A stretch of 64,000 nt of DNA, taken from Escherichia coli (lineage in GTDB: Bacteria > Pseudomonadota > Gammaproteobacteria > Enterobacterales > Enterobacteriaceae). The notes beneath the pieces are model-generated. The model had not been told where the DNA came from. It ran no database searches and saw only the letters and a program-made list of their open reading frames with translations. Of the stretch, positions 37,890 through 59,676 are shown piece by piece. The position numbers and the translations under genes were made by a program. The stretch lies in the NCBI RefSeq assembly GCF_009931435.1, contig NZ_CP043414.1. One strand, 5' to 3'. The first letter of the stretch is position 1; the number at the start of each line of letters is the position of its first letter.

Positions 37890-38372
37890 CCGCCCAAAGG
37901 GCGGCATTCGGGCTTACTTGCTGTTCTGAAGGTTGTTAACCATCAGTAAATTGTTGCCGGAGGGACTCCGGTTATTATTTACCTCGGTTAACAGCGCACC
38001 AGAAACAATAAGTACGATACAGAAGTACCGTATCTTCATTGTGCGGTCCATGCGAAGACCGCATCACGACAGCACCACTGGCGATATTGCCGCGATAGCA
38101 AGCGCTGTGGGGTGCCTGCATTTACGGTCATGGAACATCCTTTCCTAAAGCCAGCGCCCGTTTGCGAGACGGCGAAAAGGGCCGTCACGAATAATACTCT
38201 CATATTTGAATAATTACTCTATTTATTATCTTGACTTGGCCAGGCATAAAAGAGAGTATTTCAACACTGTGGGGTGCCTGCGTTGCTCCGGCAACACAAG
38301 TCAACCTGCTGGAAAGGCCGCGAACCAGACCAGCAATAAAAAACCGCCAAATTCGGCGGTTTTTTATTGCCT
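37890..38372. ncRNA. ryfA: sseB-sseA intergenic region corresponding to the K-12 ryfA sRNA locus (strand and boundaries not resolved)
   Basis: About 490 bp non-coding gap in the K-12 ryfA position; hairpins near both ends (about 37887-37915 and 38340-38372) and the motif ctgtggggtgcctgc present twice (about 38104 and 38268). Confidence 0.35.
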
Positions 38373-38381
38373 GTAAAAAGC

Positions 38382-39227
38382 TTATTTCAATGGCTCAACC
38401 GGTAAATCTGCCCGTGCGCCCCATTCACTCCATGCGCCGTCGTACAGTTTCACGTTTGGCACATCCAGCGTCGCGAGTGCCAACAAAACCACGGCTGCCG
38501 TTACACCAGAACCGCAGCTGACGATAATTGGTTTGTCGTAGCTGACACCGCGACCAAAAAATATCGCATCCAGTTCATCGGTCGTTTTTAGTTCGCCTTC
38601 ACGGACCAGTTCCGTCCACGGAACGTTCAATGCACCGGGAATATGTCCGCGACGTAAACCTGGGCGAGGTTCATCAACTTCTGCGTTAAAACGTGTAGCC
38701 GGGCGGGCATCAATAATTTGCGCCGTATTTTCATGGCTTGCCAATAATACATCGGTTACTTTCACCACGGCTTCAGGATTAAACGCGGCGTTAAACTCTC
38801 CTTCCGGCAGCTCTACTGCGCCTTCTTCTAATAGCAGATCATCACGCTGCCAGCCTGCAAGTCCACCACCCAGAATCGACACTTTCTCTACACCAAAGGT
38901 GCGCAGCATCCACCATGCGCGTGGGGCTGAGAAAAGATTACCTTCGTCATAGACAATCAGGTGCTTATCCTGGTTAACGCCTAACTCACGCATCGCCACG
39001 GCGAACGTTTCCGGGCGCGGCAGCATGTGCGGAAGCGGGGAAGTGTGATCAGAAAGCGCTTCGATATCGAAAAACACTGCGCCGGGAATATGTCCATTCA
39101 GATACTCCTGGGCAACGTTACGATCTTCCTGTCCAGGCGGTGCCATGCGGGCATCGATAATCTGAATTTCCGGGTCATCAATATGTTCGGCGAGCCAGTC
39201 GGCTCCTACAAACCATGTCGTGGACAT
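38382..39227 (-). CDS. sseA: 3-mercaptopyruvate sulfurtransferase
   Basis: 281 aa from MSTTWFVGADWL; tandem rhodanese domains with active-site CGSGVTA. Confidence 0.9.
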   Translation of the reverse strand: MSTTWFVGADWLAEHIDDPEIQIIDARMAPPGQEDRNVAQEYLNGHIPGAVFFDIEALSDHTSPLPHMLPRPETFAVAMRELGVNQDKHLIVYDEGNLFSAPRAWWMLRTFGVEKVSILGGGLAGWQRDDLLLEEGAVELPEGEFNAAFNPEAVVKVTDVLLASHENTAQIIDARPATRFNAEVDEPRPGLRRGHIPGALNVPWTELVREGELKTTDELDAIFFGRGVSYDKPIIVSCGSGVTAAVVLLALATLDVPNVKLYDGAWSEWGARADLPVEPLK

Positions 39228-39432
39228 AGGCATCTCCATTTTTGCCGGGTTAGGCTAAATTGTCGGATGTTTAGTGAAAAGCGACAAGCAAAAGAGGCTG
39301 ATTTGGCTGTCTGAGCCACAATTCTCACTAAAATTCGGATTCCATGGGCGCGATACTGAATTACATAACGTAAATTCTCACGCATAATAATTATTCGACG
39401 TTGCTAACGGGCCATTGTGGCAGGGATGAAAA

Positions 39433-42400
39433 ATGAAAAAGTTACGCGTAGCCGCCTGCATGCTAATGCTGGCGCTGGCAGGGTGCGACAACGACAACAA
39501 CGATAACGCGCCAACAGCGGTGAAAAAAGATGCACCTTCTGAAGTTACTAAAGCGGCATCTTCAGAAAACGCGAGTTCAGCAAAACTCTCTGCACCGGAG
39601 CGACAAAAACTGGCACAACAGAGTGCCGGTAAGGCGCTGACATTGCTGGATCTCTCTGAAGTCCAACTCGATGGCGCAGCCACGCTGGTGCTGACCTTCT
39701 CTATCCCTCTCGACCCGGATCAGGATTTCTCGCGCGTTATTCACGTCGTTGATAAAAAAAGCGGCAAAGTGGATGGGGCCTGGGAGCTGTCAGATAATCT
39801 TAAAGAGCTGCGTTTACGCCACCTCGAGCCGAAACGTGATTTGATCGTTACTATTGGCAAGGAGGTCAAGGCACTCAACAACGCAACCTTCAGTAAAGAT
39901 TACGAAAAAACTATAACTACCCGCGATATCCAGCCCAGCGTCGGTTTTGCCAGCCGTGGTTCGCTGCTGCCTGGAAAAGTCATTGAAGGGCTGCCGGTAA
40001 TGGCGCTCAATGTTAACAATGTCGATGTTAACTTCTTCCGTGTTAAGCCAGAATCTCTGCCAGCATTTATTAGCCAATGGGAATACCGAAATTCGCTGGC
40101 GAACTGGCAGTCAGACAAACTGCTGCAAATGGCGGATCTGGTTTATACCGGACGTTTTGATCTCAATCCTGCGCGTAACACCCGTGAAAAATTATTGCTG
40201 CCGCTGGGTGATATCAAACCGCTTCAGCAGGCGGGTGTGTATCTGGCTGTGATGAATCAGGCTGGACGTTACGATTACAGTAATCCCGCGACGCTGTTTA
40301 CATTAAGTGATATCGGCGTATCGGCCCACCGTTATCACAATCGTCTGGATATCTTTACCCAAAGCCTGGAAAACGGCGCGGCCCAGCAAGGAGTTGAAGT
40401 CTCATTATTAAATGAGAAAGGGCAGACTCTGACTCAGGCAACCAGTGATGCCCAGGGGCATGTGCAGCTGGAAAATGATAAAAACGCGGCATTACTGTTG
40501 GCGCGTAAAGACGGTCAGACAACGCTACTCGATTTAAAACTTCCGGCGCTGGACTTAGCAGAATTTAACATTGCTGGCGCGCCAGGCTATAACAAACAGT
40601 TTTTCATGTTTGGCCCGCGCGATCTTTATCGCCCGGGTGAAACAGTCATCCTTAATGGTTTATTGCGTGATGCAGACGGTAAAGCGTTGCCCGATCAACC
40701 CATCAAGCTGGACGTAATTAAACCCGACGGGCAGGTACTCAGGAGCGTCGTTAGTCAGCCGGAGAATGGCCTCTATCACTTTACGTGGCCACTCGATAGT
40801 AATGCGGCCACCGGCATGTGGCATATCCGAGCCAATACGGGCGATAACCAGTATCGGATGTGGGATTTCCACGTCGAAGATTTTATGCCAGAGCGTATGG
40901 CGCTGAATCTGACCGGTGAGAAAACCCCGCTAACGCCGAAAGATGAAGTGAAATTCTCCGTGGTGGGTTACTACCTGTACGGGGCGCCTGCTAATGGTAA
41001 TACTTTGCAAGGGCAACTTTTCCTGCGCCCACTGCGTGAAGCTGTGTCAGCCTTACCTGGTTTCGAATTCGGCGATATAGCTGCTGAAAACCTTTCGCGC
41101 ACGCTGGATGAAGTTCAGTTGACGCTGGATGATAAAGGGCGCGGCGAAGTTTCTACAGAAAGCCAGTGGAAGGAAACGCATTCCCCATTACAGGTTATTT
41201 TCCAGGGCAGTTTGCTGGAGTCTGGCGGTCGCCCGGTGACGCGCCGTGCTGAGCAGGCTATCTGGCCTGCCGATGCATTGCCGGGGATCCGTCCGCAATT
41301 CGCCTCGAAATCGGTTTACGATTATCGCACTGACAGTACGGTAAAACAGCCCATTGTTGATGAAGGCAGTAACGCCGCTTTCGACATCGTTTATAGCGAT
41401 GCACAGGGCGTCAAAAAAGCTGTGTCTGGCTTACAAGTGCGCCTGATTCGCGAACGCCGCGATTACTACTGGAACTGGTCAGAAGATGAAGGCTGGCAGT
41501 CACAGTTTGATCAAAAAGATCTGATCGAAAATGAACAAACACTGGATCTTCAGGCTGATGAAACCGGTAAAGTCAGTTTCCCGGTAGAGTGGGGCGCTTA
41601 TCGTCTGGAAGTCAAAGCGCCGAATGAAGCGGTCAGTAGTGTGCGTTTCTGGGCTGGCTATAGCTGGCAGGACAATAGCGACGGTAGCGGTGCTGTGCGA
41701 CCAGACCGTGTCACGCTGAAACTGGATAAAGCCAGTTATCGCCCTGGTGATACCATTAAGTTGCACATTGCCGCACCAACGGCGGGTAAAGGCTATGCGA
41801 TGGTCGAGTCCAGTGAAGGGCCGCTGTGGTGGCAGGAGATTGATGTTCCGGCACAAGGGCTGGATCTGACGATTCCGGTCGATAAAACCTGGAATCGTCA
41901 TGATCTTTATTTAAGTACGCTGGTGGTACGTCCTGGCGATAAATCTCGCTCCGCGACGCCAAAACGCGCAGTTGGCGTGTTGCATTTGCCGCTTGGCGAT
42001 GAAAACCGTCGTCTCGATCTGGCGCTGGAAACTCCAGCGAAAATACGCCCCAATCAGCCATTAACCGTGAAAATTAAAGCCAGCAATAAAAATGGTGAGA
42101 TGCCAAAACAGGTGAATGTGCTGGTGTCTGCGGTTGATAGCGGTGTGTTGAATATTACTGATTATGTCACGCCAGATCCGTGGCAGGCATTCTTTGGTCA
42201 GAAACGCTATGGCGCAGATATTTACGATATTTACGGTCAGGTCATTGAAGGTCAGGGGCGTCTGGCAGCTCTGCGTTTTGGTGGCGATGGTGATGAACTG
42301 AAACGCGGTGGTAAACCGCCAGTAAATCACGTCAATATTGTTGCGCAACAGGCGCTACCGGTAACACTCAACGAACAGGGCGAAGGCACGGTTACATTGC

Positions 42401-44400
42401 CGATTGGTGATTTTAACGGTGAATTGCGCGTCATGGCACAAGCATGGACGGCAGATGATTTCGGTAGCAACGAAAGCAAAGTGGTTGTTGCCGCACCGGT
42501 GATAGCAGAACTGAATATGCCGCGCTTTATGGCCAGCGGTGACACCTCACGTCTGACGCTGGATATCACTAATCTTACCGATAAACCGCAAAAACTGAAC
42601 GTTGCTCTGACCGCCAGTGGCTTGCTTGAACTGGTTAGCGATTCACCCGCAGCCGTTGAATTAGCGCCGGGCGTGCGAACCACGCTGTTTATCCCGGTGC
42701 GAGCATTGCCGGGTTATGGTGATGGTGAAATTCAGGCCACTATTAGCGGGTTAGCGTTACCGGGCGAAACCGCTGCCGATCAGCATAAGCAGTGGAAAAT
42801 GGGTGTCCGTCCGGCATTTCCGGCACAAACCGTCAATTACGGTACGGCGTTGCAGCCTGGTGAGACATGGGCGATTCCAGCTGATGGATTGCAAAACTTC
42901 TCGCCTGTTACGCTGGAAGGGCAATTGTTGTTGAGCGGCAAACCACCGTTGAATATTGCACGTTATATCAAAGAGTTAAAAGCGTATCCGTACGGTTGTC
43001 TGGAGCAAACCGCCAGCGGCCTGTTCCCGTCACTTTACACCAACGCAGCCCAACTGCAGGCGTTGGGAATCAAAGGCGACAGTGATGAGAAGCGCCGTAC
43101 GGCAGTCGATATCGGCATTTCTCGTTTACTGCAAATGCAACGTGATAACGGTGGCTTTGCGCTGTGGGATAAAAACGGTGATGAAGAGTACTGGCTGACG
43201 GCTTACGTGATGGATTTTCTGGTCCGCGCAGGTGAGCAGGGTTACAGCGTGCCGACAGAAGCCATTAACCGGGGGAATGAGCGTCTACTGCGCTATTTAC
43301 AAGATCCGGGCATGATGTCGATTCCGTATGCGGATAATCTCAAAGCCAGTAAATTCGCCGTACAGTCTTACGCTGCGCTGGTGCTGGCCCGTCAGCAAAA
43401 GGCACCGCTGGGTGCGCTGCGTGAAATCTGGGAGCATCGTGCCGATGCTGCGTCTGGATTACCGCTGCTGCAACTTGGCGTTGCGCTGAAAACCATGGGC
43501 GATGCAACGCGTGGTGAAGAAGCGATTGTGCTGGCGCTGAAAACGCCGCGCAATAGTGATGAGCGGATATGGCTGGGTGATTACGGAAGTCCACTGCGCG
43601 ACAACGCATTGATGCTCTCCTTGCTGGAAGAGAACAAATTGCTACCCGATGAGCAGTACCCTCTGCTGAACACACTTTCGCAGCAGGCGTTCGGTGAACG
43701 CTGGTTATCAACTCAGGAAAGTAACGCGCTGTTCCTGGCTGCCCGTACGATTCAGGATTTACCGGGCAAATGGCAGGCGCAAACGTCTTTCTCTGCTGAG
43801 CTGCTGACAGGTGAGAAAGCGCAAACCAGCAATCTGAATAGCGATCAACTTGCCACCTTACAGGTGACCAACAGTGGCGATCAGCCGTTATGGCTGCGTG
43901 TGGATGCCAGCGGATATCCGCAATCCGCCCCTTTACCGGCGAGCAATGTGCTGCAAATCGAGCGCCATATTCTTGGCACTGACGGTAAGAGCAAATCGCT
44001 GGATTCGTTACGTAGCGGCGATCTGGTACTGGTCTGGTTGCAGGTCAAAGCCAGTAACAGCGTGCCGGATGCTTTGGTCGTTGATTTACTGCCTGCTGGC
44101 CTGGAACTGGAAAACCAGAACCTGGCTAACGGCAGCGCCAGCCTGGAGCAAAGTGGTAGCGAAGTGCAAAACCTACTCAGTCAAATGCAACAAGCGAACA
44201 TTAAGCATATTGAGTTTCGTGACGATCGCTTTGTGGCGGCGGTTGCCGTTGATGAATATCAACCAGTCACGCTGGTGTATCTGGCGCGGGCGGTAACGCC
44301 GGGAACATACAATGTTCCGCAACCAATGGTGGAATCGATGTATGTTCCCCACTGGCGGGCGACTGGCGCGGCTGAAGATCTGTTGATTGTCAGACCGTAA
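39433..44400 (+). CDS. yfhM: Alpha-2-macroglobulin family lipoprotein
   Basis: 1655 aa; lipoprotein signal LALAGC; thioester motif CLEQ within YGCLEQTASG. Confidence 0.9.
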   Translation: MKKLRVAACMLMLALAGCDNDNNDNAPTAVKKDAPSEVTKAASSENASSAKLSAPERQKLAQQSAGKALTLLDLSEVQLDGAATLVLTFSIPLDPDQDFSRVIHVVDKKSGKVDGAWELSDNLKELRLRHLEPKRDLIVTIGKEVKALNNATFSKDYEKTITTRDIQPSVGFASRGSLLPGKVIEGLPVMALNVNNVDVNFFRVKPESLPAFISQWEYRNSLANWQSDKLLQMADLVYTGRFDLNPARNTREKLLLPLGDIKPLQQAGVYLAVMNQAGRYDYSNPATLFTLSDIGVSAHRYHNRLDIFTQSLENGAAQQGVEVSLLNEKGQTLTQATSDAQGHVQLENDKNAALLLARKDGQTTLLDLKLPALDLAEFNIAGAPGYNKQFFMFGPRDLYRPGETVILNGLLRDADGKALPDQPIKLDVIKPDGQVLRSVVSQPENGLYHFTWPLDSNAATGMWHIRANTGDNQYRMWDFHVEDFMPERMALNLTGEKTPLTPKDEVKFSVVGYYLYGAPANGNTLQGQLFLRPLREAVSALPGFEFGDIAAENLSRTLDEVQLTLDDKGRGEVSTESQWKETHSPLQVIFQGSLLESGGRPVTRRAEQAIWPADALPGIRPQFASKSVYDYRTDSTVKQPIVDEGSNAAFDIVYSDAQGVKKAVSGLQVRLIRERRDYYWNWSEDEGWQSQFDQKDLIENEQTLDLQADETGKVSFPVEWGAYRLEVKAPNEAVSSVRFWAGYSWQDNSDGSGAVRPDRVTLKLDKASYRPGDTIKLHIAAPTAGKGYAMVESSEGPLWWQEIDVPAQGLDLTIPVDKTWNRHDLYLSTLVVRPGDKSRSATPKRAVGVLHLPLGDENRRLDLALETPAKIRPNQPLTVKIKASNKNGEMPKQVNVLVSAVDSGVLNITDYVTPDPWQAFFGQKRYGADIYDIYGQVIEGQGRLAALRFGGDGDELKRGGKPPVNHVNIVAQQALPVTLNEQGEGTVTLPIGDFNGELRVMAQAWTADDFGSNESKVVVAAPVIAELNMPRFMASGDTSRLTLDITNLTDKPQKLNVALTASGLLELVSDSPAAVELAPGVRTTLFIPVRALPGYGDGEIQATISGLALPGETAADQHKQWKMGVRPAFPAQTVNYGTALQPGETWAIPADGLQNFSPVTLEGQLLLSGKPPLNIARYIKELKAYPYGCLEQTASGLFPSLYTNAAQLQALGIKGDSDEKRRTAVDIGISRLLQMQRDNGGFALWDKNGDEEYWLTAYVMDFLVRAGEQGYSVPTEAINRGNERLLRYLQDPGMMSIPYADNLKASKFAVQSYAALVLARQQKAPLGALREIWEHRADAASGLPLLQLGVALKTMGDATRGEEAIVLALKTPRNSDERIWLGDYGSPLRDNALMLSLLEENKLLPDEQYPLLNTLSQQAFGERWLSTQESNALFLAARTIQDLPGKWQAQTSFSAELLTGEKAQTSNLNSDQLATLQVTNSGDQPLWLRVDASGYPQSAPLPASNVLQIERHILGTDGKSKSLDSLRSGDLVLVWLQVKASNSVPDALVVDLLPAGLELENQNLANGSASLEQSGSEVQNLLSQMQQANIKHIEFRDDRFVAAVAVDEYQPVTLVYLARAVTPGTYNVPQPMVESMYVPHWRATGAAEDLLIVRP

Positions 44401-46713
44401 ATGCCTCGCCTGTTAACCAAACGCGGCTGCTGGATAGCGCTGGCAGCTGCGCCTTTTCTCCTTTTTTTTGCCGCGTGGGGAGCAGATAAACTCTGGCCCC
44501 TGCCATTGCATGAAGTCAATCCCGCACGCGTAGTCGTGGCGCAGGATGGTACGCCACTCTGGCGTTTCGCCGATGCTGAGGGCATCTGGCGCTATCCGGT
44601 AACCATCGAAGATGTCTCTCCGCGTTACCTTGAAGCACTGATCAATTATGAAGATCGCTGGTTCTGGAAGCATCCGGGGGTGAATCCATTCTCGGTGGCG
44701 CGCGCAGCATGGCAAGATCTCACTTCGGGACGGGTTATTTCCGGCGGCAGCACACTCACCATGCAGGTTGCTCGTCTGCTTGATCCTCACCCCAAAACTT
44801 TTGGCGGCAAAATTCGCCAGCTCTGGCGCGCGTTTCAACTGGAATGGCACTTGTCTAAACGTGACATTCTGACCTTGTATCTTAATCGCGCTCCGTTTGG
44901 TGGTACGTTGCAGGGGATCGGTGCGGCAAGTTGGGCATATCTCGGAAAATCGCCTGCGAATTTAAGCTATTCCGAGGCGGCAATGCTGGCGGTGTTACCA
45001 CAAGCGCCCAGCCGACTGCGTCCGGATCGCTGGCCGGAACGTGCCGAGGCCGCACGTAATAAAGTGCTCAATCGGATGGCTGCGCAAGGTGTGTGGTCCC
45101 GTGAGCAGGTAAAAGAATCTAGTGAAGAGCCCATCTGGTTGGCACCCAGACAAATGCCGCAACTGGCACCGCTGTTTTCGCGCATGATGCTCGGTAAAAG
45201 CAAAAGCGACAAAATCGTTACTACGCTGGATGCTGGTTTACAGCGTCGTCTGGAAGAACTGGCGCAAAACTGGAAAGGACGATTGCCACCGCGCAGTTCG
45301 TTGGCAATGATCGTTGTTGATCATACTGATATGAGTGTGCGCGGCTGGATAGGATCGGTTGATCTTAATGATGATTCCCGCTTTGGGCATGTCGATATGG
45401 TCAATGCGATCCGATCGCCGGGATCGGTACTCAAACCGTTTGTTTATGGTCTGGCGCTGGATGAAGGCTTGATCCACCCTGCATCGCTGTTGCAAGACGT
45501 TCCCCGGCGCACTGGTGATTATCGACCAGGCAACTTTGACAGCGGTTTTCATGGCCCGATCAGCATGAGTGAGGCGCTGGTGCGCTCGCTGAATTTACCT
45601 GCTGTGCAGGTGCTGGAAGCCTATGGACCGAAACGGTTTGCGGCAAAGTTACGCAATGTTGGATTGCCGTTATATTTGCCCAACGGTGCTGCACCGAATC
45701 TTTCGCTCATTCTCGGCGGCGCAGGTGCAAAACTGGAGGATATGGCTGCAGCGTATACCGCATTTGCTCGCCACGGTAAGGCGGGTAAGTTGCGCTTACA
45801 GCCGGGGGACCCATTACTTGAGCGACCGTTAATGTCGCCGGGGGCCGCGTGGATTATCCGCCGTATTATGGCAGATGAAGCGCAGCCGCTTCCGGATGGC
45901 GCTTTGCCACGCGTCGTACCACTGGCGTGGAAAACAGGAACCAGTTATGGCTATCGCGATGCATGGGCTATTGGCGTTAACGCTCGTTACGTAATTGGGA
46001 TCTGGACTGGCAGACCGGACGGTACGCCCGTTGTCGGTCAGTTTGGCTTTGCCAGCGCCGTACCGCTGTTGAATCAGGTCAATAATATCTTACTGTCGCG
46101 CAGTGCGAATCTGCCGGAAGACCCGCGTCCTGATTCTGTAAGCCGTGGCGTTATCTGCTGGCCTGGTGGGCAATCATTGCCAGAAGGCGATAGCAATTGC
46201 CGCCGTCGTCTTGCCACCTGGCTGCTCGAAGATAGCCAGCCACCAACATTACTTTTACCGGAGCAAGAAGGAATAAGTGGGATTCGTTTCCCCATCTGGC
46301 TTGATGAGCAAGGCAAACGTGTTGCCGCTGATTGTCCTCAGGCTCGACAAGAAATGATTAATGTCTGGCCATTACCACTTGAACCCTGGCTACCTGCTGC
46401 TGAACGACGAGCAGCGCGCTTACCTGGGGCATCAACAAATTGCCCGCCGTATGGTCGTGATGCTCAGGTACCTTTACAGTTGATTGGTGTGCGTGATGGC
46501 GTAATTATCAAACGTCTGCCAGGAGCTACTGATGCGTCATTACCAGTACAATTAAGCGGAGGAACAGGCGAACGCTGGTGGTTTCTTAATGGTGAACCGT
46601 TAGCTGAACGCGGGCGTAACGTGACTCTGCATTTGACAGAGAAAGGCGATTATCAATTGCTGGTAATGGACGAAATGGGGCAGGTGGCGACAGTGAGATT
46701 TGTCATGCAGTAG
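44401..46713 (+). CDS. pbpC: Penicillin-binding protein 1C (bifunctional transglycosylase/transpeptidase)
   Basis: 770 aa; ATG immediately follows the yfhM stop; transpeptidase motifs SxxK (SVLK) and KTGT. Confidence 0.9.
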   Translation: MPRLLTKRGCWIALAAAPFLLFFAAWGADKLWPLPLHEVNPARVVVAQDGTPLWRFADAEGIWRYPVTIEDVSPRYLEALINYEDRWFWKHPGVNPFSVARAAWQDLTSGRVISGGSTLTMQVARLLDPHPKTFGGKIRQLWRAFQLEWHLSKRDILTLYLNRAPFGGTLQGIGAASWAYLGKSPANLSYSEAAMLAVLPQAPSRLRPDRWPERAEAARNKVLNRMAAQGVWSREQVKESSEEPIWLAPRQMPQLAPLFSRMMLGKSKSDKIVTTLDAGLQRRLEELAQNWKGRLPPRSSLAMIVVDHTDMSVRGWIGSVDLNDDSRFGHVDMVNAIRSPGSVLKPFVYGLALDEGLIHPASLLQDVPRRTGDYRPGNFDSGFHGPISMSEALVRSLNLPAVQVLEAYGPKRFAAKLRNVGLPLYLPNGAAPNLSLILGGAGAKLEDMAAAYTAFARHGKAGKLRLQPGDPLLERPLMSPGAAWIIRRIMADEAQPLPDGALPRVVPLAWKTGTSYGYRDAWAIGVNARYVIGIWTGRPDGTPVVGQFGFASAVPLLNQVNNILLSRSANLPEDPRPDSVSRGVICWPGGQSLPEGDSNCRRRLATWLLEDSQPPTLLLPEQEGISGIRFPIWLDEQGKRVAADCPQARQEMINVWPLPLEPWLPAAERRAARLPGASTNCPPYGRDAQVPLQLIGVRDGVIIKRLPGATDASLPVQLSGGTGERWWFLNGEPLAERGRNVTLHLTEKGDYQLLVMDEMGQVATVRFVMQ

Positions 46714-46861
46714 TCTGTTTTGCTCATATTTGTTGCTTAAACTCGTTTTATTTTAAAAAAATGTTACCTTCATCAATAGTCAACGGCCCTGTTGCTCATT
46801 ATAATCCGCGCCATCTCGTACGCTGGTACAGACAACAACAGAATAATTTACAGAGGTAAAA

Positions 46862-47293
46862 ATGGCTATTGAACGTACTTTTTCCATCATCAAACCGAAC
46901 GCGGTAGCAAAAAACGTCATTGGCAATATCTTTGCGCGCTTTGAAGCTGCAGGGTTCAAAATTGTCGGCACCAAAATGCTGCACCTGACCGTTGAACAGG
47001 CTCGTGGCTTTTATGCTGAACACGATGGAAAACCGTTCTTTGATGGTCTGGTTGAATTCATGACCTCTGGCCCGATCGTGGTTTCCGTGCTGGAGGGTGA
47101 AAACGCCGTTCAGCGTCACCGCGATCTGCTGGGCGCGACCAATCCGGCAAACGCACTGGCCGGTACTCTGCGTGCTGATTACGCTGACAGCCTGACCGAA
47201 AATGGTACCCACGGTTCTGATTCCGTCGAATCTGCCGCTCGCGAAATCGCTTATTTCTTCGGCGAAGGCGAAGTGTGCCCGCGCACCCGTTAA
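46862..47293 (+). CDS. ndk: Nucleoside diphosphate kinase
   Basis: 143 aa; active-site region NGTHGSDS. Confidence 0.95.
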
Positions 47294-47442
47294 TAATTTC
47301 GTAAATGCCGCGTGCAAACGTGGCATCCATGCGCCAGAATTTGTACAATGCAGCGCCCCCGGACGAGCAGCCGCTCACCGGGGCGTTTCTTTTTTCAACC
47401 CTCCAGGGGCCATAACGTGTAATAACGAGGCCGGAATAGCAT

Positions 47443-48597
47443 ATGTCTGAACAATTAGTCACACCTGAAAACGTCACCACGAAAGATGGAAAAATCAACC
47501 TGCTGGATCTCAACCGTCAGCAGATGCGGGAGTTTTTTAAAGATTTAGGTGAAAAACCCTTCCGCGCCGATCAGGTGATGAAGTGGATGTATCACTATTG
47601 CTGCGACAACTTTGATGAGATGACCGACATCAACAAAGTGTTGCGCGGTAAACTAAAAGAGGTGGCGGAAATCCGCGCACCGGAAGTGGTTGAAGAACAG
47701 CGTTCATCTGACGGCACCATTAAATGGGCGATTGCCGTTGGCGATCAGCGCGTCGAAACGGTGTATATCCCGGAAGACGACCGTGCCACGCTTTGCGTTT
47801 CCTCGCAGGTGGGGTGTGCGCTGGAGTGTAAATTCTGTTCCACCGCCCAGCAGGGCTTTAACCGCAATCTGCGGGTGTCGGAAATTATCGGCCAGGTGTG
47901 GCGTGCAGCGAAAATCGTTGGCGCAGCAAAAGTCACCGGTCAGCGCCCAATCACTAACGTAGTGATGATGGGTATGGGCGAGCCGCTGCTCAACCTGAAC
48001 AACGTCGTTCCGGCGATGGAAATCATGCTCGATGATTTCGGTTTTGGTCTGTCTAAACGTCGCGTTACGCTCTCTACATCAGGCGTTGTTCCGGCGCTGG
48101 ATAAACTGGGCGATATGATCGACGTAGCGCTGGCAATTTCCCTGCATGCGCCGAACGACGAAATTCGTGACGAAATTGTGCCGATCAACAAAAAGTACAA
48201 TATCGAAACGTTCCTTGCTGCGGTGCGCCGCTATCTGGAGAAATCTAACGCCAATCAGGGCCGAGTCACTATTGAATACGTGATGCTTGATCACGTTAAC
48301 GACGGCACTGAACACGCGCACCAACTGGCGGAGCTGCTGAAAGATACGCCGTGTAAGATCAACCTGATCCCGTGGAACCCGTTCCCTGGCGCGCCGTATG
48401 GACGCAGCTCAAACAGTCGTATCGACCGTTTCTCTAAAGTGCTGATGAGCTACGGTTTCACCACTATTGTGCGTAAAACTCGTGGTGATGATATCGATGC
48501 TGCCTGTGGTCAGTTGGCGGGCGATGTTATCGACCGTACGAAACGTACCCTGCGTAAACGAATGCAGGGTGAGGCCATCGACATTAAAGCGGTCTGA
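47443..48597 (+). CDS. rlmN: 23S rRNA/tRNA m2A methyltransferase RlmN (radical SAM)
   Basis: 384 aa; radical-SAM Cys motif CALECKFC. Confidence 0.95.
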
Positions 48598-56326: not shown

Positions 56327-58519
56327 ATGTCACAGGGGATGTGCATGCTGCGATGGAAACGCTGTATTATGCTAACATTTATCTCTGGAGCTGCTTTTGC
56401 GGCTCCAGAGATAAATGTTGAGCATAAAGAATCGTTACCTGATTTAGGTAGTCAGGCCGCACAACAGGAAGAGCAAACTAACAAGGGTAAATCGCTAAAA
56501 GAGCGTGGTGCCGATTACGTCATTAACTCTGCCACGCAAGGGTTTGAAAACCTCACACCCGAGGCGCTGGAGTCCCAGGCCAGAAGCTATCTGCAAAGTC
56601 AAATTACCTCTACGACACAATCTTATATTGAGGATACACTCTCCCCCTACGGTAAGGTCCGAACGAATCTTTCTCTTGGTCAGGGCGGCGATCTGGATGG
56701 CAGTTCCATCGACTATTTTGTTCCCTGGTATGATAATCAAACTACTGTTTATTTCAGCCAATTTTCTGCACAACGAAAAGAAGATCGTACGATCGGGAAT
56801 ATTGGGCTTGGTGTAAGACATAATTTTGATAGATGGTTATTGGGTGGAAATATATTTTATGATTATGATTTTACCCGTGGGCATCGCCGTTTAGGTTTAG
56901 GTGCCGAAGCCTGGACTGATTATTTAAAATTCTCTGGCAACTATTATCATCCGCTTTCTGACTGGAAAGACTCCGAAGATTTCGATTTTTATGAGGAGCG
57001 TCCTGCGCGCGGTTGGGATATTCGCGCCGAAGCCTGGCTACCTGCTTACCCGCAGCTTGGCGGTAAAATCGTTTTCGAACAGTATTACGGTGATGAAGTC
57101 GCGCTTTTTGGCACCGATAATCTGGAGAAAGATCCCTTCGCCGTCACGCTGGGTGTGAAATACCAGCCCGTACCGCTCATTGCCGTAGGAACGGATTTCA
57201 AAGCCGGCACTGGCGATAATACCGATCTTTCTGTTAACGCAACGCTGAACTACCAGTTTGGCGTCTCGCTCAAAGACCAGCTTGATCCTGACAAAGTAAG
57301 CGCGGCTCACTCGCTCATGGGCAGCCGTCACGACTTTGTTGAACGTAACAACTTTATTGTTCTGGAATACAAAGAGAAAGATCCCCTCGATGTCACTTTG
57401 TGGCTGAAAGCTGATGCGACGAATGAACATCCCGAGTGCGTGATTAAAGATACGCCAGAAGCAGCCATCGGGCTGGAAAAATGTAAGTGGACCATTAACG
57501 CGCTCATTAATCATCATTACAAAATCGTTGCTGCCTCCTGGCAGGCGAAAAACAATGCTGCACGTACGCTGGTGATGCCGGTTATCAAAGAAAATACGCT
57601 TACCGAAGGGAACAACAATCACTGGAATCTGGTGCTGCCTGCCTGGCAGTACAGCTCTGATAAAGCCGACCAGGAAAAACTCAATACCTGGCGGGTACGC
57701 CTGGCGCTGGAAGATGAAAAAGGCAATCGGCAGAACTCCGGCGTGGTGGAAATTACCGTTCAGCAGGACCGTAAAATTGAGCTCATTGTTAACAACATCG
57801 CCAATGTACCGGATGAGAACAATCACAGCCACGAAGCCAGCGCGCAAGCGGATGGTGTAGATGGTGTCGTCATGGATCTCGACGTTACCGATAGCTTTGG
57901 CGACAACACTGACCGTAACGGTAATGTCTTGCCGCAGGATAATCTCAGCCCGCAGCTGTTTGATGCCAACGATAAAAAAGTGACGCTGACGAATAAACCC
58001 TGCACCACCGAAGTGCCGTGCGTTTTTATCGTCAAACAAGATAAAGAAAAGGGGACCGTTACGCTCTCCAGTACGTTGCCCGGCACTTTCCGCTGGAAGG
58101 CGAAAGCCGCCCCTTATGATGACAGTAACTATGTTGACGTAACGTTCCTGGGTTCTGACATCGGCGGGCTGAATGCTTTTATCTACCGCGTTGGTGCAGC
58201 TAAGCCCGTCAATCTTATCGGCAACAAAGAACCGTTGCCTCTCAATAGCCGCTATCGCTTTGTGCTGTGGCGCGACGCTAACAAAGACGGCGTGTTCCAG
58301 CTTTCTGAGAAGCTCACTGACGATGAGATGAAACAGTATGACTATCAGTGGGAATTCACGGGGCATAGCGTAAATGGCAATACCGGTGCGCAAACCAATA
58401 CCACGAACGTCGATATAGAGATCCCGGCAACCAACAAGGAAGCGGCAGCAAAGTTTAGTGCCCAGGTAACCGATGGCGTGCAGGGATACGGTTTGCAGGT
58501 CAATTACAGCAAGAAATAG
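56327..58519 (+). CDS. sinH: Intimin/invasin-family outer membrane protein (inverse autotransporter)
   Basis: 730 aa; signal peptide ending AFA; beta-barrel-like segment with aromatic-rich strands (GWDIRAEAWLPAYPQLGGKIVFEQYYGDE); in-frame alternative starts at 56339 and 56345. Confidence 0.7.
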   Translation: MSQGMCMLRWKRCIMLTFISGAAFAAPEINVEHKESLPDLGSQAAQQEEQTNKGKSLKERGADYVINSATQGFENLTPEALESQARSYLQSQITSTTQSYIEDTLSPYGKVRTNLSLGQGGDLDGSSIDYFVPWYDNQTTVYFSQFSAQRKEDRTIGNIGLGVRHNFDRWLLGGNIFYDYDFTRGHRRLGLGAEAWTDYLKFSGNYYHPLSDWKDSEDFDFYEERPARGWDIRAEAWLPAYPQLGGKIVFEQYYGDEVALFGTDNLEKDPFAVTLGVKYQPVPLIAVGTDFKAGTGDNTDLSVNATLNYQFGVSLKDQLDPDKVSAAHSLMGSRHDFVERNNFIVLEYKEKDPLDVTLWLKADATNEHPECVIKDTPEAAIGLEKCKWTINALINHHYKIVAASWQAKNNAARTLVMPVIKENTLTEGNNNHWNLVLPAWQYSSDKADQEKLNTWRVRLALEDEKGNRQNSGVVEITVQQDRKIELIVNNIANVPDENNHSHEASAQADGVDGVVMDLDVTDSFGDNTDRNGNVLPQDNLSPQLFDANDKKVTLTNKPCTTEVPCVFIVKQDKEKGTVTLSSTLPGTFRWKAKAAPYDDSNYVDVTFLGSDIGGLNAFIYRVGAAKPVNLIGNKEPLPLNSRYRFVLWRDANKDGVFQLSEKLTDDEMKQYDYQWEFTGHSVNGNTGAQTNTTNVDIEIPATNKEAAAKFSAQVTDGVQGYGLQVNYSKK

Positions 58520-58574: not shown

Positions 58575-59567
58575 ATGAAACCTGATATGAAACGTGGCCT
58601 GACAAAAGTCGCGCTCGCGTTGATGCTGGCTGGATACTGTGCCGTACCAGCCGCTATGGCGGAAGATGCCGCCTGGGTCGCCAGTGGAGCGACCGCTGAA
58701 TTCGAAGGGACTATACCCTGGCTCTATCGCGAAGGGGGGAATGCCACGATTAACTCGGAAGATGCGGATCACATTAAAGTGACGTCTGATGGTAAAGGGA
58801 CCCGCCCTGCAGGTAGCGAGACGGATAAACGCCTTTACTCAGGGGATACCATCACGCTGGGATGGGATATCGGCGATACCGAAGGGGATGTTGATGATGG
58901 TCCCGCAGGCATTGATGCGAAAACGACGGCCACTATCAAATGGTACAGCTACAGCAATAATGCGGGTGGCGATAAAACGGAGCTGACCGCAGCGGCAGGC
59001 AAGACGAGTTATAAACTCACTGATGACGATCGTGGGCGTTATATCGGTGTTGAAATCCAGCCCATCACCCAGACCGGTAATCCCTTCGAGGGAACGTCGC
59101 TGACTCTGCTGGATATTTCAACGGCCAGCGGTGGCGGCAGCGATACGGACAATGTCGATCCCGGCCCGGTTGTGAACCAGAATCTGAAAGTTGCCATCTT
59201 CGAGAAAGGCACCACTACCAACCTTATCGGTGGTAACACGGCCATTGCGCTTAATAAAACGTATGTGGCCAAACTGTACTCGGATGAAAACCAGAACGAT
59301 AAATACGACGCAGGTACGGATATGGACGTTACCGCTAACTATGACTTTGCATGGGTCTTTAACGGTAACAGTAAACAACTTGCTGCGGCGGGCGGTATTG
59401 CTAATGCCAGCTTCGATAACAATGACATTGTTATCCCGCAAACTAACGAAGAAGCAAGAACCAGCCTTAATGGTAGTGACCGTAATGGTAAGAGTGGTCT
59501 TGCGATCCCGGCAAACGGCGACGGCGTTCAGGGCTATACGCTGTCTATCATTTACAAACACCACTAA
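58575..59567 (+). CDS. sinI: Secreted protein of unknown function, SinI/SivI-like
   Basis: About 330 aa from the ATG at 58575 (AAGGAG RBS); signal peptide ending AMA; position between sinH and ratA. Confidence 0.65.
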   Translation: MKPDMKRGLTKVALALMLAGYCAVPAAMAEDAAWVASGATAEFEGTIPWLYREGGNATINSEDADHIKVTSDGKGTRPAGSETDKRLYSGDTITLGWDIGDTEGDVDDGPAGIDAKTTATIKWYSYSNNAGGDKTELTAAAGKTSYKLTDDDRGRYIGVEIQPITQTGNPFEGTSLTLLDISTASGGGSDTDNVDPGPVVNQNLKVAIFEKGTTTNLIGGNTAIALNKTYVAKLYSDENQNDKYDAGTDMDVTANYDFAWVFNGNSKQLAAAGGIANASFDNNDIVIPQTNEEARTSLNGSDRNGKSGLAIPANGDGVQGYTLSIIYKHH

Positions 59568-59574
59568 TGCGCAC

Positions 59575-59613
59575 AACAGCATTCCCATATGGGAATGCTG
59601 TTTTCCGCCTGTT
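59575..59613 (+). terminator. Hairpin terminator downstream of sinI
   Basis: 12-bp stem aacagcattccc / gggaatgctgtt with loop atat, followed by a T-rich tail. Confidence 0.6.
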
Positions 59614-59676
59614 TTGCTTAGCGACGCGTTAAGCAAAACAGGTTGATGTTTTGTTTATCATGCTGGAGTTTTCTAC

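Follow-up and report, generated by a model that had tools for sequence, protein, structure and literature searches.

Type I bacterial alpha-2-macroglobulin (A2M) genes usually lie next to pbpC, the gene for the penicillin-binding protein PBP1C, and both products are anchored in the inner membrane, as set out in earlier reports (PMC4498604, PMC3328433, PMC3735191). These reports also quote Budd et al. 2004, who proposed that proteases breaching the outer membrane are trapped by the A2M and that PBP1C repairs the wall. Here we analyse the yfhM-pbpC pair, in which yfhM encodes the A2M known as ECAM, in a 64,000-nt stretch of Escherichia coli DNA (contig NZ_CP043414.1 of assembly GCF_009931435.1; hereafter the window, position 1 being its first letter). 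We find that a stem-loop beginning 21 nt past the yfhM stop codon, just inside pbpC, is a conserved structured RNA element, its pairs being kept via compensatory changes beyond what phylogeny and codon phase would give; it seems to be previously undescribed. The explanation that we favour, with modest confidence when all its parts are taken together, is that of an intact gene pair expressed by read-through and reinitiation in which the hairpin is a 3' element of yfhM.

Type II A2M operons, such as E. coli yfaS and Pseudomonas aeruginosa magABCDEF, share the fold of multiple macroglobulin (MG) domains and the periplasmic location, according to the passages of PMC3735191 that describe them. In type II systems the A2M gene forms an operon with genes other than pbpC, MagD has neither the lipobox Cys nor CxEQ and many other members lack CxEQ (corresponding passages of PMC3735191 and PMC3328433), whereas YfhM of the window has all type I features. 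Human A2M and complement C3 have in common with ECAM the ring of MG domains, the bait region, a TED with CxEQ and conformational trapping (comparisons in PMC4498604 and PMC3328433); ECAM differs in being monomeric, lipid-anchored and periplasmic and in having two extra N-terminal MG domains, and the part of PMC4498604 that concerns its location places it in the inner membrane. Salmonella enterica SaA2M (4U48) and its pbpC are again type I, with lipobox, Asp at +2, CLEQ, a 0-nt TAA-ATG junction and a homologous stem-loop; amino-acid identity is about 82%, and the stem there has a loop of 4 nt, with one covarying pair being C-G instead of U-A.

Compared with K-12 yfhM-pbpC (b2520-b2519), the window is the same in gene order and orientation, with sseA upstream and ndk downstream, in the TAA-ATG junction, the domains, CLEQ and the lipobox, and in the junction hairpin. 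It differs by 33 substitutions and a DN insertion in YfhM and by 43 substitutions in PbpC, 27 of them within the last 200 residues; nucleotide identity is about 92.5% across the pair and 97–99% in the flanks. The region is therefore a canonical, intact E. coli yfhM-pbpC pair, already known, and one further strain with an intact copy is nothing new by itself. The added value lies in the nature and rarity of a two-residue indel in YfhM, in a pbpC that lacks a ribosome-binding site of its own and in the conserved, apparently undescribed stem-loop.

The stem-loop (Table 1) is assigned to the sense-strand RNA because the opposite strand would have C-A mismatches in place of its four G-U pairs. Every species with a 0- or 1-nt junction has a 12–14-bp stem at the same place despite sequence change. 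RNAalifold recovered the stem from 53 Enterobacterales junctions, with compensatory changes in all 8 predicted pairs. When the full 12-pair stem was scored over these 53 sequences, 85.9% of cells were paired, compared with 72.5% in shuffled alignments (0/500) and 29–61% when the partners were slid; covariation was 0.459, compared with 0.239 for shuffles and no more than 0.246 for slid partners. A gap-free subset of 31 sequences behaved alike, with 91.3% of cells paired against 81.4% in shuffles, covariation of 0.37 against 0.18 (0/500), double changes in 8 of 13 pairs, and a measure of further pair types that none of the 500 shuffles reached. One pair is represented in this subset by UA (16), GC (6), CG (5) and UG (1). 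The first positions of codons 8–10 (Arg, Gly, Cys) pair with the third positions of codons 17–15 (Ala), and synonymous sites thus track amino-acid-changing sites, which is not explicable by selection at the protein level.

Two further comparisons gave the same picture. Against synonymous recodings made with each locus's own codon usage, the native sequence was the more stable in 50 of 53 species (mean z −1.92), with values of −4 to −6 in Buttiauxella and the Cedecea group. As matched controls we used all 20 hairpins of −17 kcal/mol or below in window yfhM and pbpC, codon-aligned to 22 non-Escherichia orthologues. The junction hairpin was an outlier among them, keeping 91.3% of its pairs at 59.5% sequence identity with 30 double-change cells spread over 8 of 12 pairs; two controls at similar identity kept 50–52% of pairs, and those that kept 80–86% were 79–84% identical with 0–8 double changes. 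We infer from these alignments that selection acting on the sense RNA maintains the GC-rich stem-loop. Judged from the single sequence, the significance of the hairpin had to be rejected, and the claim is carried by the comparative tests only. An Rfam search of 39000–47500 at E ≤ 1 gave no match.

The stem starts between +20 and +22 of pbpC in Escherichia, Citrobacter, Salmonella, Pantoea and Buttiauxella, and between +27 and +40 in the Cedecea-like group and Mangrovibacter. Of 25 Xanthomonadales loci, 15 carry a hairpin within ~100 nt downstream of the A2M stop codon that belongs to the top 6.6% of the local background; in this order no consistent excess of structure was found in the pbpC 5' coding region, the exceptions including two 0-nt-junction loci with the hairpin inside pbpC. 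What these groups share is a stable stem-loop shortly downstream of the A2M stop codon.

A terminator scan flags the same interval as the stem-loop, with 12 pairs and a 6-nt loop followed by CCTTTTCTCCTTTTTTTT. The stem has the GC-rich, 5–14-bp, short-loop form of an intrinsic terminator, and a U-tract immediately after it is missing; the tail CCUUUUCUCCUUUUU has a d'Aubenton-Carafa-type score of 1.41 (0.72 in K-12). The textbook arrangement of A-tract, stem and U-tract was seen only in Pantoea, Mangrovibacter and the Citrobacter sp. 18056 clade. A canonical intrinsic terminator was rejected as the conserved function, the U-tract being neither conserved nor selected.

The context of the stem-loop was compared in a species scan that took one genome per species, with window PBP1C as the query, and returned 80 loci, none of them from Klebsiella, Enterobacter, Serratia or Yersinia. 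An A2M gene lay directly upstream of pbpC on the same strand at 76 loci, one locus was cut by a contig end and three had no A2M gene in the flank. These three (L062, L067 and L068; two Methylococcaceae and one Lysobacteraceae) carry pbpC without an A2M gene within 2.8–5.5 kb upstream, and PBP1C is therefore not strictly tied to an A2M gene. The spacer is 0 nt in 26 of 51 Enterobacterales loci (Escherichia, most Citrobacter, Salmonella, Raoultella), 1 nt in 6 (Kluyvera and relatives), 3 nt in 6 (Pantoea, Mangrovibacter) and 6–27 nt in 13 (Buttiauxella, the Cedecea group, Franconibacter and others), which puts 38 of the 51 at 0–3 nt. Xanthomonadales spacers range from 0 to several hundred nt and reach ~2.3 kb in two loci. 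Adjacency is thus near-universal, and exact abutment is a feature of the Escherichia-Citrobacter-Salmonella group.

The preliminary description of this DNA, made from its letters, had reported that the two reading frames abut as TAA-ATG. Both frames exist as described there, the pbpC ATG begins at the base right after the yfhM TAA (...GTC AGA CCG TAA, then ATG CCT CGC...), the spacer is 0 nt and the junction is identical in K-12. Among 42 annotated features in 50 kb of the region, yfhM and pbpC form the only same-strand junction of 0 nt. The abutment is not chance, being the same in K-12, unique among local junctions and recurrent in Enterobacterales. The interpretation offered in the preliminary description is supported; its mention of a periplasmic defence-and-repair pairing restates a published proposal, the pairing having been known since 2004 (Budd et al. 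2004, as quoted in the passages of PMC4498604, PMC3328433 and PMC3735191 on the gene pair).

Signals for separate expression of pbpC are scarce. A consensus scan of the + strand gave no promoter-like site for pbpC in the last 600 nt of yfhM, and transcription of pbpC would therefore be read-through that starts at the yfhM promoter. Promoter-like sites in the region are as frequent as expected from shuffles, and the candidate upstream of yfhM (Table 1) is a lead only. In the last 30 nt of yfhM the best duplex with the anti-Shine-Dalgarno (anti-SD) sequence reaches only −1.0 kcal/mol, and it is ~0 at all 31 related loci of species with a 0- or 1-nt junction. The abutting ATG is the only early in-frame start codon of window pbpC, ahead of the basic tail and the anchor. 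Translational coupling by termination and reinitiation is plausible because pbpC has no SD sequence, and co-transcription, for which an intervening terminator would have been damaging, was checked and is not refuted: a terminator-like stem-loop does lie 21 nt inside pbpC, and the U-tail is weak, no Term-seq 3' end falls there and no promoter-like site precedes pbpC.

Genomic SELEX (systematic evolution of ligands by exponential enrichment) placed an RpoE (sigma-24) holoenzyme peak inside yfhM, between pbpC and sseA, at K-12 coordinate 2649866 (PMC5493296). This hints at envelope-stress control of the locus; direction and target gene are not stated in PMC5493296. The pbpC row of a large absolute proteome table (Mori 2021) contains zeros only, which gives weak support to very low PBP1C levels.

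From these observations we suggest the following. Most translation of PBP1C would be by ribosomes that, after terminating on yfhM, start again at the adjacent AUG. A ribosome halted at the yfhM stop would leave the position of the stem-loop free to fold, and the folded structure could act as the 3' hairpin of the yfhM cistron, that is, as a partial terminator and/or a barrier to exonucleases. ECAM, a stoichiometric, one-shot suicide trap, would then be made in excess over the catalytic PBP1C, and a ribosome reinitiating on pbpC would melt the hairpin and permit full-length expression. We favour a 3' hairpin of the yfhM cistron because a stable stem-loop just 3' of the A2M stop is the common denominator across the orders compared. 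We thus read the hairpin as a probable attenuator or 3' stabiliser, by which the relative expression of the two genes is probably tuned, and its conservation suggests that yfhM and pbpC are not expressed at a simple 1:1 ratio.

A number of findings weigh against this explanation. In the window the fold of the region has z = +0.71 relative to dinucleotide shuffles, equally stable hairpins occur about once per 1.7 kb per strand, and pbpC ranks only fifth of 40 local genes for the strength of its 5' hairpin. In the synonymous-recoding test the window reached only z −1.3 (p = 0.12) and K-12 only −1.0, and recoded versions still fold at about −17 kcal/mol; the amino-acid sequence imposes most of the hairpin's stability. 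U-richness after the stem exceeds that expected from the anchor's Phe/Leu/Ile codons by a mean of 0.5 T per 18 nt across species; the C. freundii complex, Kluyvera and Raoultella lack a U-tract; and the tail score is below 1.5 in 28 of 53 sequences. The complete K-12 Term-seq tables (Adams et al. 2021, PMC7815308) list no 3' end in yfhM or pbpC, and neither gene name is present in the SMRT-Cappable-seq supplements (PMC6131387). The TERMITe supplements (PMC12207403) likewise have no yfhM or pbpC entry. Low expression could explain the absence of mapped 3' ends. Finally, the functional partnership of ECAM and PBP1C is still a proposal in the literature.

Much of this would be expected if the pair were a plain coupled operon and the hairpin a functionless by-product of the GC-rich, self-complementary codons (Arg/Gly/Cys/Trp, then Leu/Ala/Ala/Ala) at the PBP1C tail and anchor start, expression being set only by the yfhM promoter and the efficiency of reinitiation. 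The stability of the recoded sequences, the low z of the window, the abundance of hairpins of similar strength, the missing 3' ends and a U-tract that follows amino-acid composition all fit such a by-product, as does the 61–64% pairing already obtained when the stem is slid by +3, that is, in codon phase. It would not account for compensatory changes that hit synonymous third positions and cross amino-acid replacements, for 91% pairing at 59.5% identity where matched coding hairpins of equal divergence keep 50–52%, for the 50 of 53 species that are more stable than their own recodings, or for taxa with a spacer, which have the hairpin in the non-coding spacer instead. We therefore consider it unlikely, and less likely than a role in translation, which is a live rival even though we would not expect it to prevail. 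In that case the hairpin would be a backstop against sliding of post-termination ribosomes, or would pace early elongation, and would tune reinitiation on pbpC; with the SD-less AUG in its P site, a ribosome would have its leading edge ~6 nt short of the stem. The lack of an SD sequence in any species with a 0- or 1-nt junction speaks for this role, together with the stem position at +20 to +22 in five genera and the conservation of the stem but not of the U-tract that termination needs, with no 3' end mapped. The longer distance in the Cedecea-like group and Mangrovibacter speaks against it, and the Xanthomonadales hairpin, which lies in the spacer and hence before the pbpC start, cannot be a downstream backstop. 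To our knowledge there is no established bacterial precedent for a hairpin backstop mechanism, which we also count against it. It is very improbable that pbpC is independent, with a promoter inside yfhM, an abutment that reflects genome compaction and a hairpin that is the true terminator of a monocistronic yfhM. The RpoE peak inside K-12 yfhM, the site flagged by the terminator scan and the three distant pbpC loci without an upstream A2M gene could be read in this way. Against it, the peak presumably lies near the yfhM 5' end, ~4.5 kb from pbpC. The final 600 nt of yfhM gave no promoter-like site on the + strand, an SD-less start set directly against a stop codon is poorly suited to independent initiation, and the tail score is low in E. 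coli.

The hairpin as a 3' element of yfhM can be extended to a joint reading of all these features, which we offer tentatively and would not be surprised to see fail. The stem-loop would be an intra-operon attenuator that folds in a ribosome-free zone behind the yfhM stop, ends or stabilises most transcripts and is melted only by reinitiating ribosomes, and PBP1C would be gated by reinitiation and read-through together. The element would have been absorbed from an intergenic spacer (compare Xanthomonadales) into coding sequence when the genes fused to 0 nt in Enterobacteriaceae, and would since have constrained synonymous sites and the N-terminal amino acids of PBP1C. Intercistronic stem-loops are known to set unequal expression within operons, as with the repetitive extragenic palindromic (REP) hairpin of malE-malF and the hairpins of the Rhodobacter puf operon. 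By analogy, the present hairpin may belong with these, each being a stable hairpin just 3' of an upstream cistron needed in excess. It differs from them in being known from sequence and in lying inside the downstream gene, within its first 17 codons, a consequence of the abutment of yfhM and pbpC. If this is right, an RNA element that throttles PBP1C downstream of ECAM would offer a handle for asking when PBP1C is made, and the locus would be a clean case of RNA structure constraining the N-terminal sequence of a protein.

Table 1. Coordinates of features at the yfhM-pbpC locus (positions in the window)
Feature	Position	Strand	Basis or remark
Weak sigma-70-like promoter candidate ATTACA-17-CATAAT upstream of yfhM, 9/12 matches	39360..39388	+	consensus scan
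Shine-Dalgarno-like GGCAGGGAT (GGCAGGGAU) of yfhM, moderate	39419..39427	+	6–14 nt before ATG; anti-SD duplex −6.0 kcal/mol
yfhM coding sequence (ECAM, alpha-2-macroglobulin)	39433..44400	+	ATG start, 1655 residues then TAA; open reading frame list and Pfam
Predicted lipoprotein signal peptide, lipobox LAGC; Cys18 codon 39484–39486	39433..39486	+	translation; conserved in Enterobacteriaceae orthologues
Tandem duplication GACAAC GACAAC (codons 19–22), adding Asp-Asn to the D/N-rich tether	39487..39498	+	K-12 alignment
Bait-region domain (residues 761–907)	41713..42153	+	Pfam PF07703, E = 6.8e-16
Thioester motif CLEQ (residues 1189–1192)	42997..43008	+	motif search
Junction TAA-ATG, yfhM stop directly abutting pbpC start, without upstream SD	44398..44403	+	
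pbpC coding sequence (PBP1C)	44401..46713	+	ATG start, 770 residues then TAA; open reading frame list and Pfam
Sense-strand stem-loop, 12 bp (8 G-C, 4 G-U), 6-nt loop, about −20 kcal/mol, pbpC codons 8–17	44422..44451	+	
U-rich tail CCUUUUCUCCUUUUUUUU (codons PFLLFF, membrane anchor)	44452..44469	+	13/18 T, p = 0.054 against synonymous recoding
Rare, deeply divergent pbpC 3' segment (linker and BiPBP_C)	45751..46713	+	

The locus is present in 5425 of 5426 complete E. coli genomes, and DNA from 'E. coli 2020CK-00188', annotated in RefSeq as yfhM, pbpC and ndk, has 2 mismatches to the window in 13,661 nt. The neighbourhood is the usual one for E. coli, in the order hca, csiE, suhB, isc, pepB, sseB, timP, sseA, then yfhM and pbpC, then ndk, rlmN, rodZ, ispG, hisS, yfgM, bamB and der.

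Pfam assigns 11 domains above curated cut-offs to YfhM over residues 61–1639 (bMG1, bMG2, bMG3, MG2, bMG5, bMG6, A2M_BRD, A2M, TED, CUB and bMG10), and the PDB entries for ECAM (4RTD, 4ZIQ and 5A42) and for Salmonella SaA2M (4U48) align with it from end to end. With its lipobox, full set of MG, bait, CUB and TED domains, CxEQ motif and pbpC neighbour, the product is a type I bacterial A2M, and it would be an inner-membrane-anchored periplasmic lipoprotein that traps attacking endopeptidases covalently. Protease-triggered activation of the thioester and trapping are attributed to it because it is 97.9% identical to the biochemically characterised ECAM of K-12 (PMC4498604, PMC3328433). The thioester motif had been reported as retained, and indeed CLEQ lies in the TED and corresponds to K-12 Cys1187 after a shift of two residues. 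CLEQ is found in every Enterobacterales orthologue with a callable lipobox start, and CAEQ in Xanthomonadales. The lipoprotein signal noted earlier also holds, as a lipidation predicted from sequence: the N-terminus reads MKKLRVAACMLMLALAG up to the lipobox LAGC and Cys18, and the protein continues CDNDNNDN, with Asp at +2, which is constant in Enterobacteriaceae orthologues. An alternative lipobox, VAAC (Cys9), was matched by a loose regular expression and rejected, being too near the N-terminus, with LAGC/Cys18 as the conserved site.

Asp at position +2 of a lipoprotein is a signal for retention in the inner membrane. Xanthomonad A2M orthologues (L060, L065, L071) have Lys instead of Asp at +2 and CAEQ instead of CLEQ, and by the sorting rules of E. 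coli the Lys would suggest a different membrane. Two Pantoea A2M reading frames (L042, L053) gave no match to the lipobox pattern; their N-termini look like ordinary signal peptides, and these proteins may be soluble in the periplasm.

YfhM was suspected to be about two residues longer than in K-12 through a small indel, and the guess was correct: it has 1655 residues against 1653, and a global alignment gives 1620 identical columns out of 1655, a single in-frame two-residue indel, no frameshift and no premature stop. The insertion directly follows the lipobox Cys, giving C-DN-DN-NDN where K-12 has C-DN-NDN. The GACAAC duplication leaves +2 Asp and +3 Asn in place and the Asp+2 inner-membrane sorting signal intact. 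The D/N tract differs in length by genus (DNNDN, DNNNDK, DNSDN, DDKNDDK). A 41-mer designed to seed megablast hits only in genomes carrying the duplication found the exact repeat in 2 of 5426 complete E. coli genomes; it is therefore a strain-level slip in a low-complexity tract.

PBP1C has a Transgly domain (PF00912, residues 60–226, E = 1.4e-51), a Transpeptidase domain (PF00905, residues 332–520) and a C-terminal BiPBP_C domain (PF06832, residues 687–767, E = 8.3e-17). The glycosyltransferase motifs are EDRWFWKHPG at residue 84 and GGSTLTMQ at 115, the transpeptidase motifs SVLK at 342, SLN at 396 and KTG at 511, and by eye a hydrophobic stretch, WIALAAAPFLLFFAAW, comes after a basic N-terminal tail (KR). 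The protein, 94.4% identical to that of K-12, is a class A peptidoglycan glycosyltransferase/transpeptidase with a PBP1C-specific C-terminal domain and is predicted to be membrane-anchored. PBP1C has no solved structure of its own, the nearest solved relatives being PBP1A and PBP1B; it can hardly be detected, and the literature assigns it no clear role in laboratory conditions and no clear phenotype.

The 3' segment of pbpC (45751–46713) is rare. Eighteen of 5424 E. coli genomes are at least 97% identical to it, 5405 lie at 80–90% and one at 60–80%; the best of the other 5406 reaches 83.4%, and nothing falls between that value and 97%. Identity to K-12 is 97–99% in sseA, ndk and rlmN, declines along yfhM from ~96% to ~92% in a gradient that begins at about 40000, drops to 79–85% in the last ~1 kb of pbpC and returns to 98.8% immediately after the pbpC stop. 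The synonymous substitution rate (dS) is 0.8–1.6 in pbpC codons 501–770 against 0.08–0.15 in flanking genes, the ratio of nonsynonymous to synonymous rates (dN/dS) is ~0.05–0.1, and BiPBP_C is the most divergent part of the allele. The segment is an old allele imported by recombination. No donor closer than 82% in 46101–46713 was found among representatives of Escherichia species. A cryptic Escherichia clade, suspected from the 92.5% identity, was rejected on the grounds that identity to K-12 is 97–99% in the flanks and only yfhM-pbpC diverges, most strongly at the 3' end of pbpC. The low dN/dS at such high dS led us to reject positive selection acting on the C-terminus of PBP1C. The C-terminal domain of pbpC has thus diverged at synonymous sites as in an inter-genus comparison, with a boundary exactly at the stop codon, and the locus is a recombination mosaic, which matters for typing or selection scans that use pbpC or yfhM.

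Upstream of the pair, the timP-sseA intergenic region (about 38040–38380 in the window; 1600–2130 in locus L002) is ~320 nt longer in K-12. The extra K-12 DNA is a tandem duplication, 82% identical over ~195 nt, whose unit holds a 37-nt inverted repeat; the window has a single copy.

Among the loci of the species scan, one labelled Chryseobacterium sp. 18061 (L016) and one labelled Bacillus subtilis SK7B5 (L075) are gammaproteobacterial yfhM-pbpC loci. The former resembles the locus of Citrobacter sp. 18056 (L015), both being 77% identical to window PBP1C with very similar junctions, and the latter resembles Stenotrophomonas and Pseudoxanthomonas loci. These two assemblies are probably contaminated or mislabelled.

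Elsewhere in the window, local hairpins reach their greatest strength at 56345–56445 and 59565–59650, and both were detected on both strands. The first, at −34.8 kcal/mol, falls within the first 99 nt of sinH, which encodes an intimin-like inverse autotransporter, and the second is near the boundary of a sinI-family gene and a large adhesin gene.

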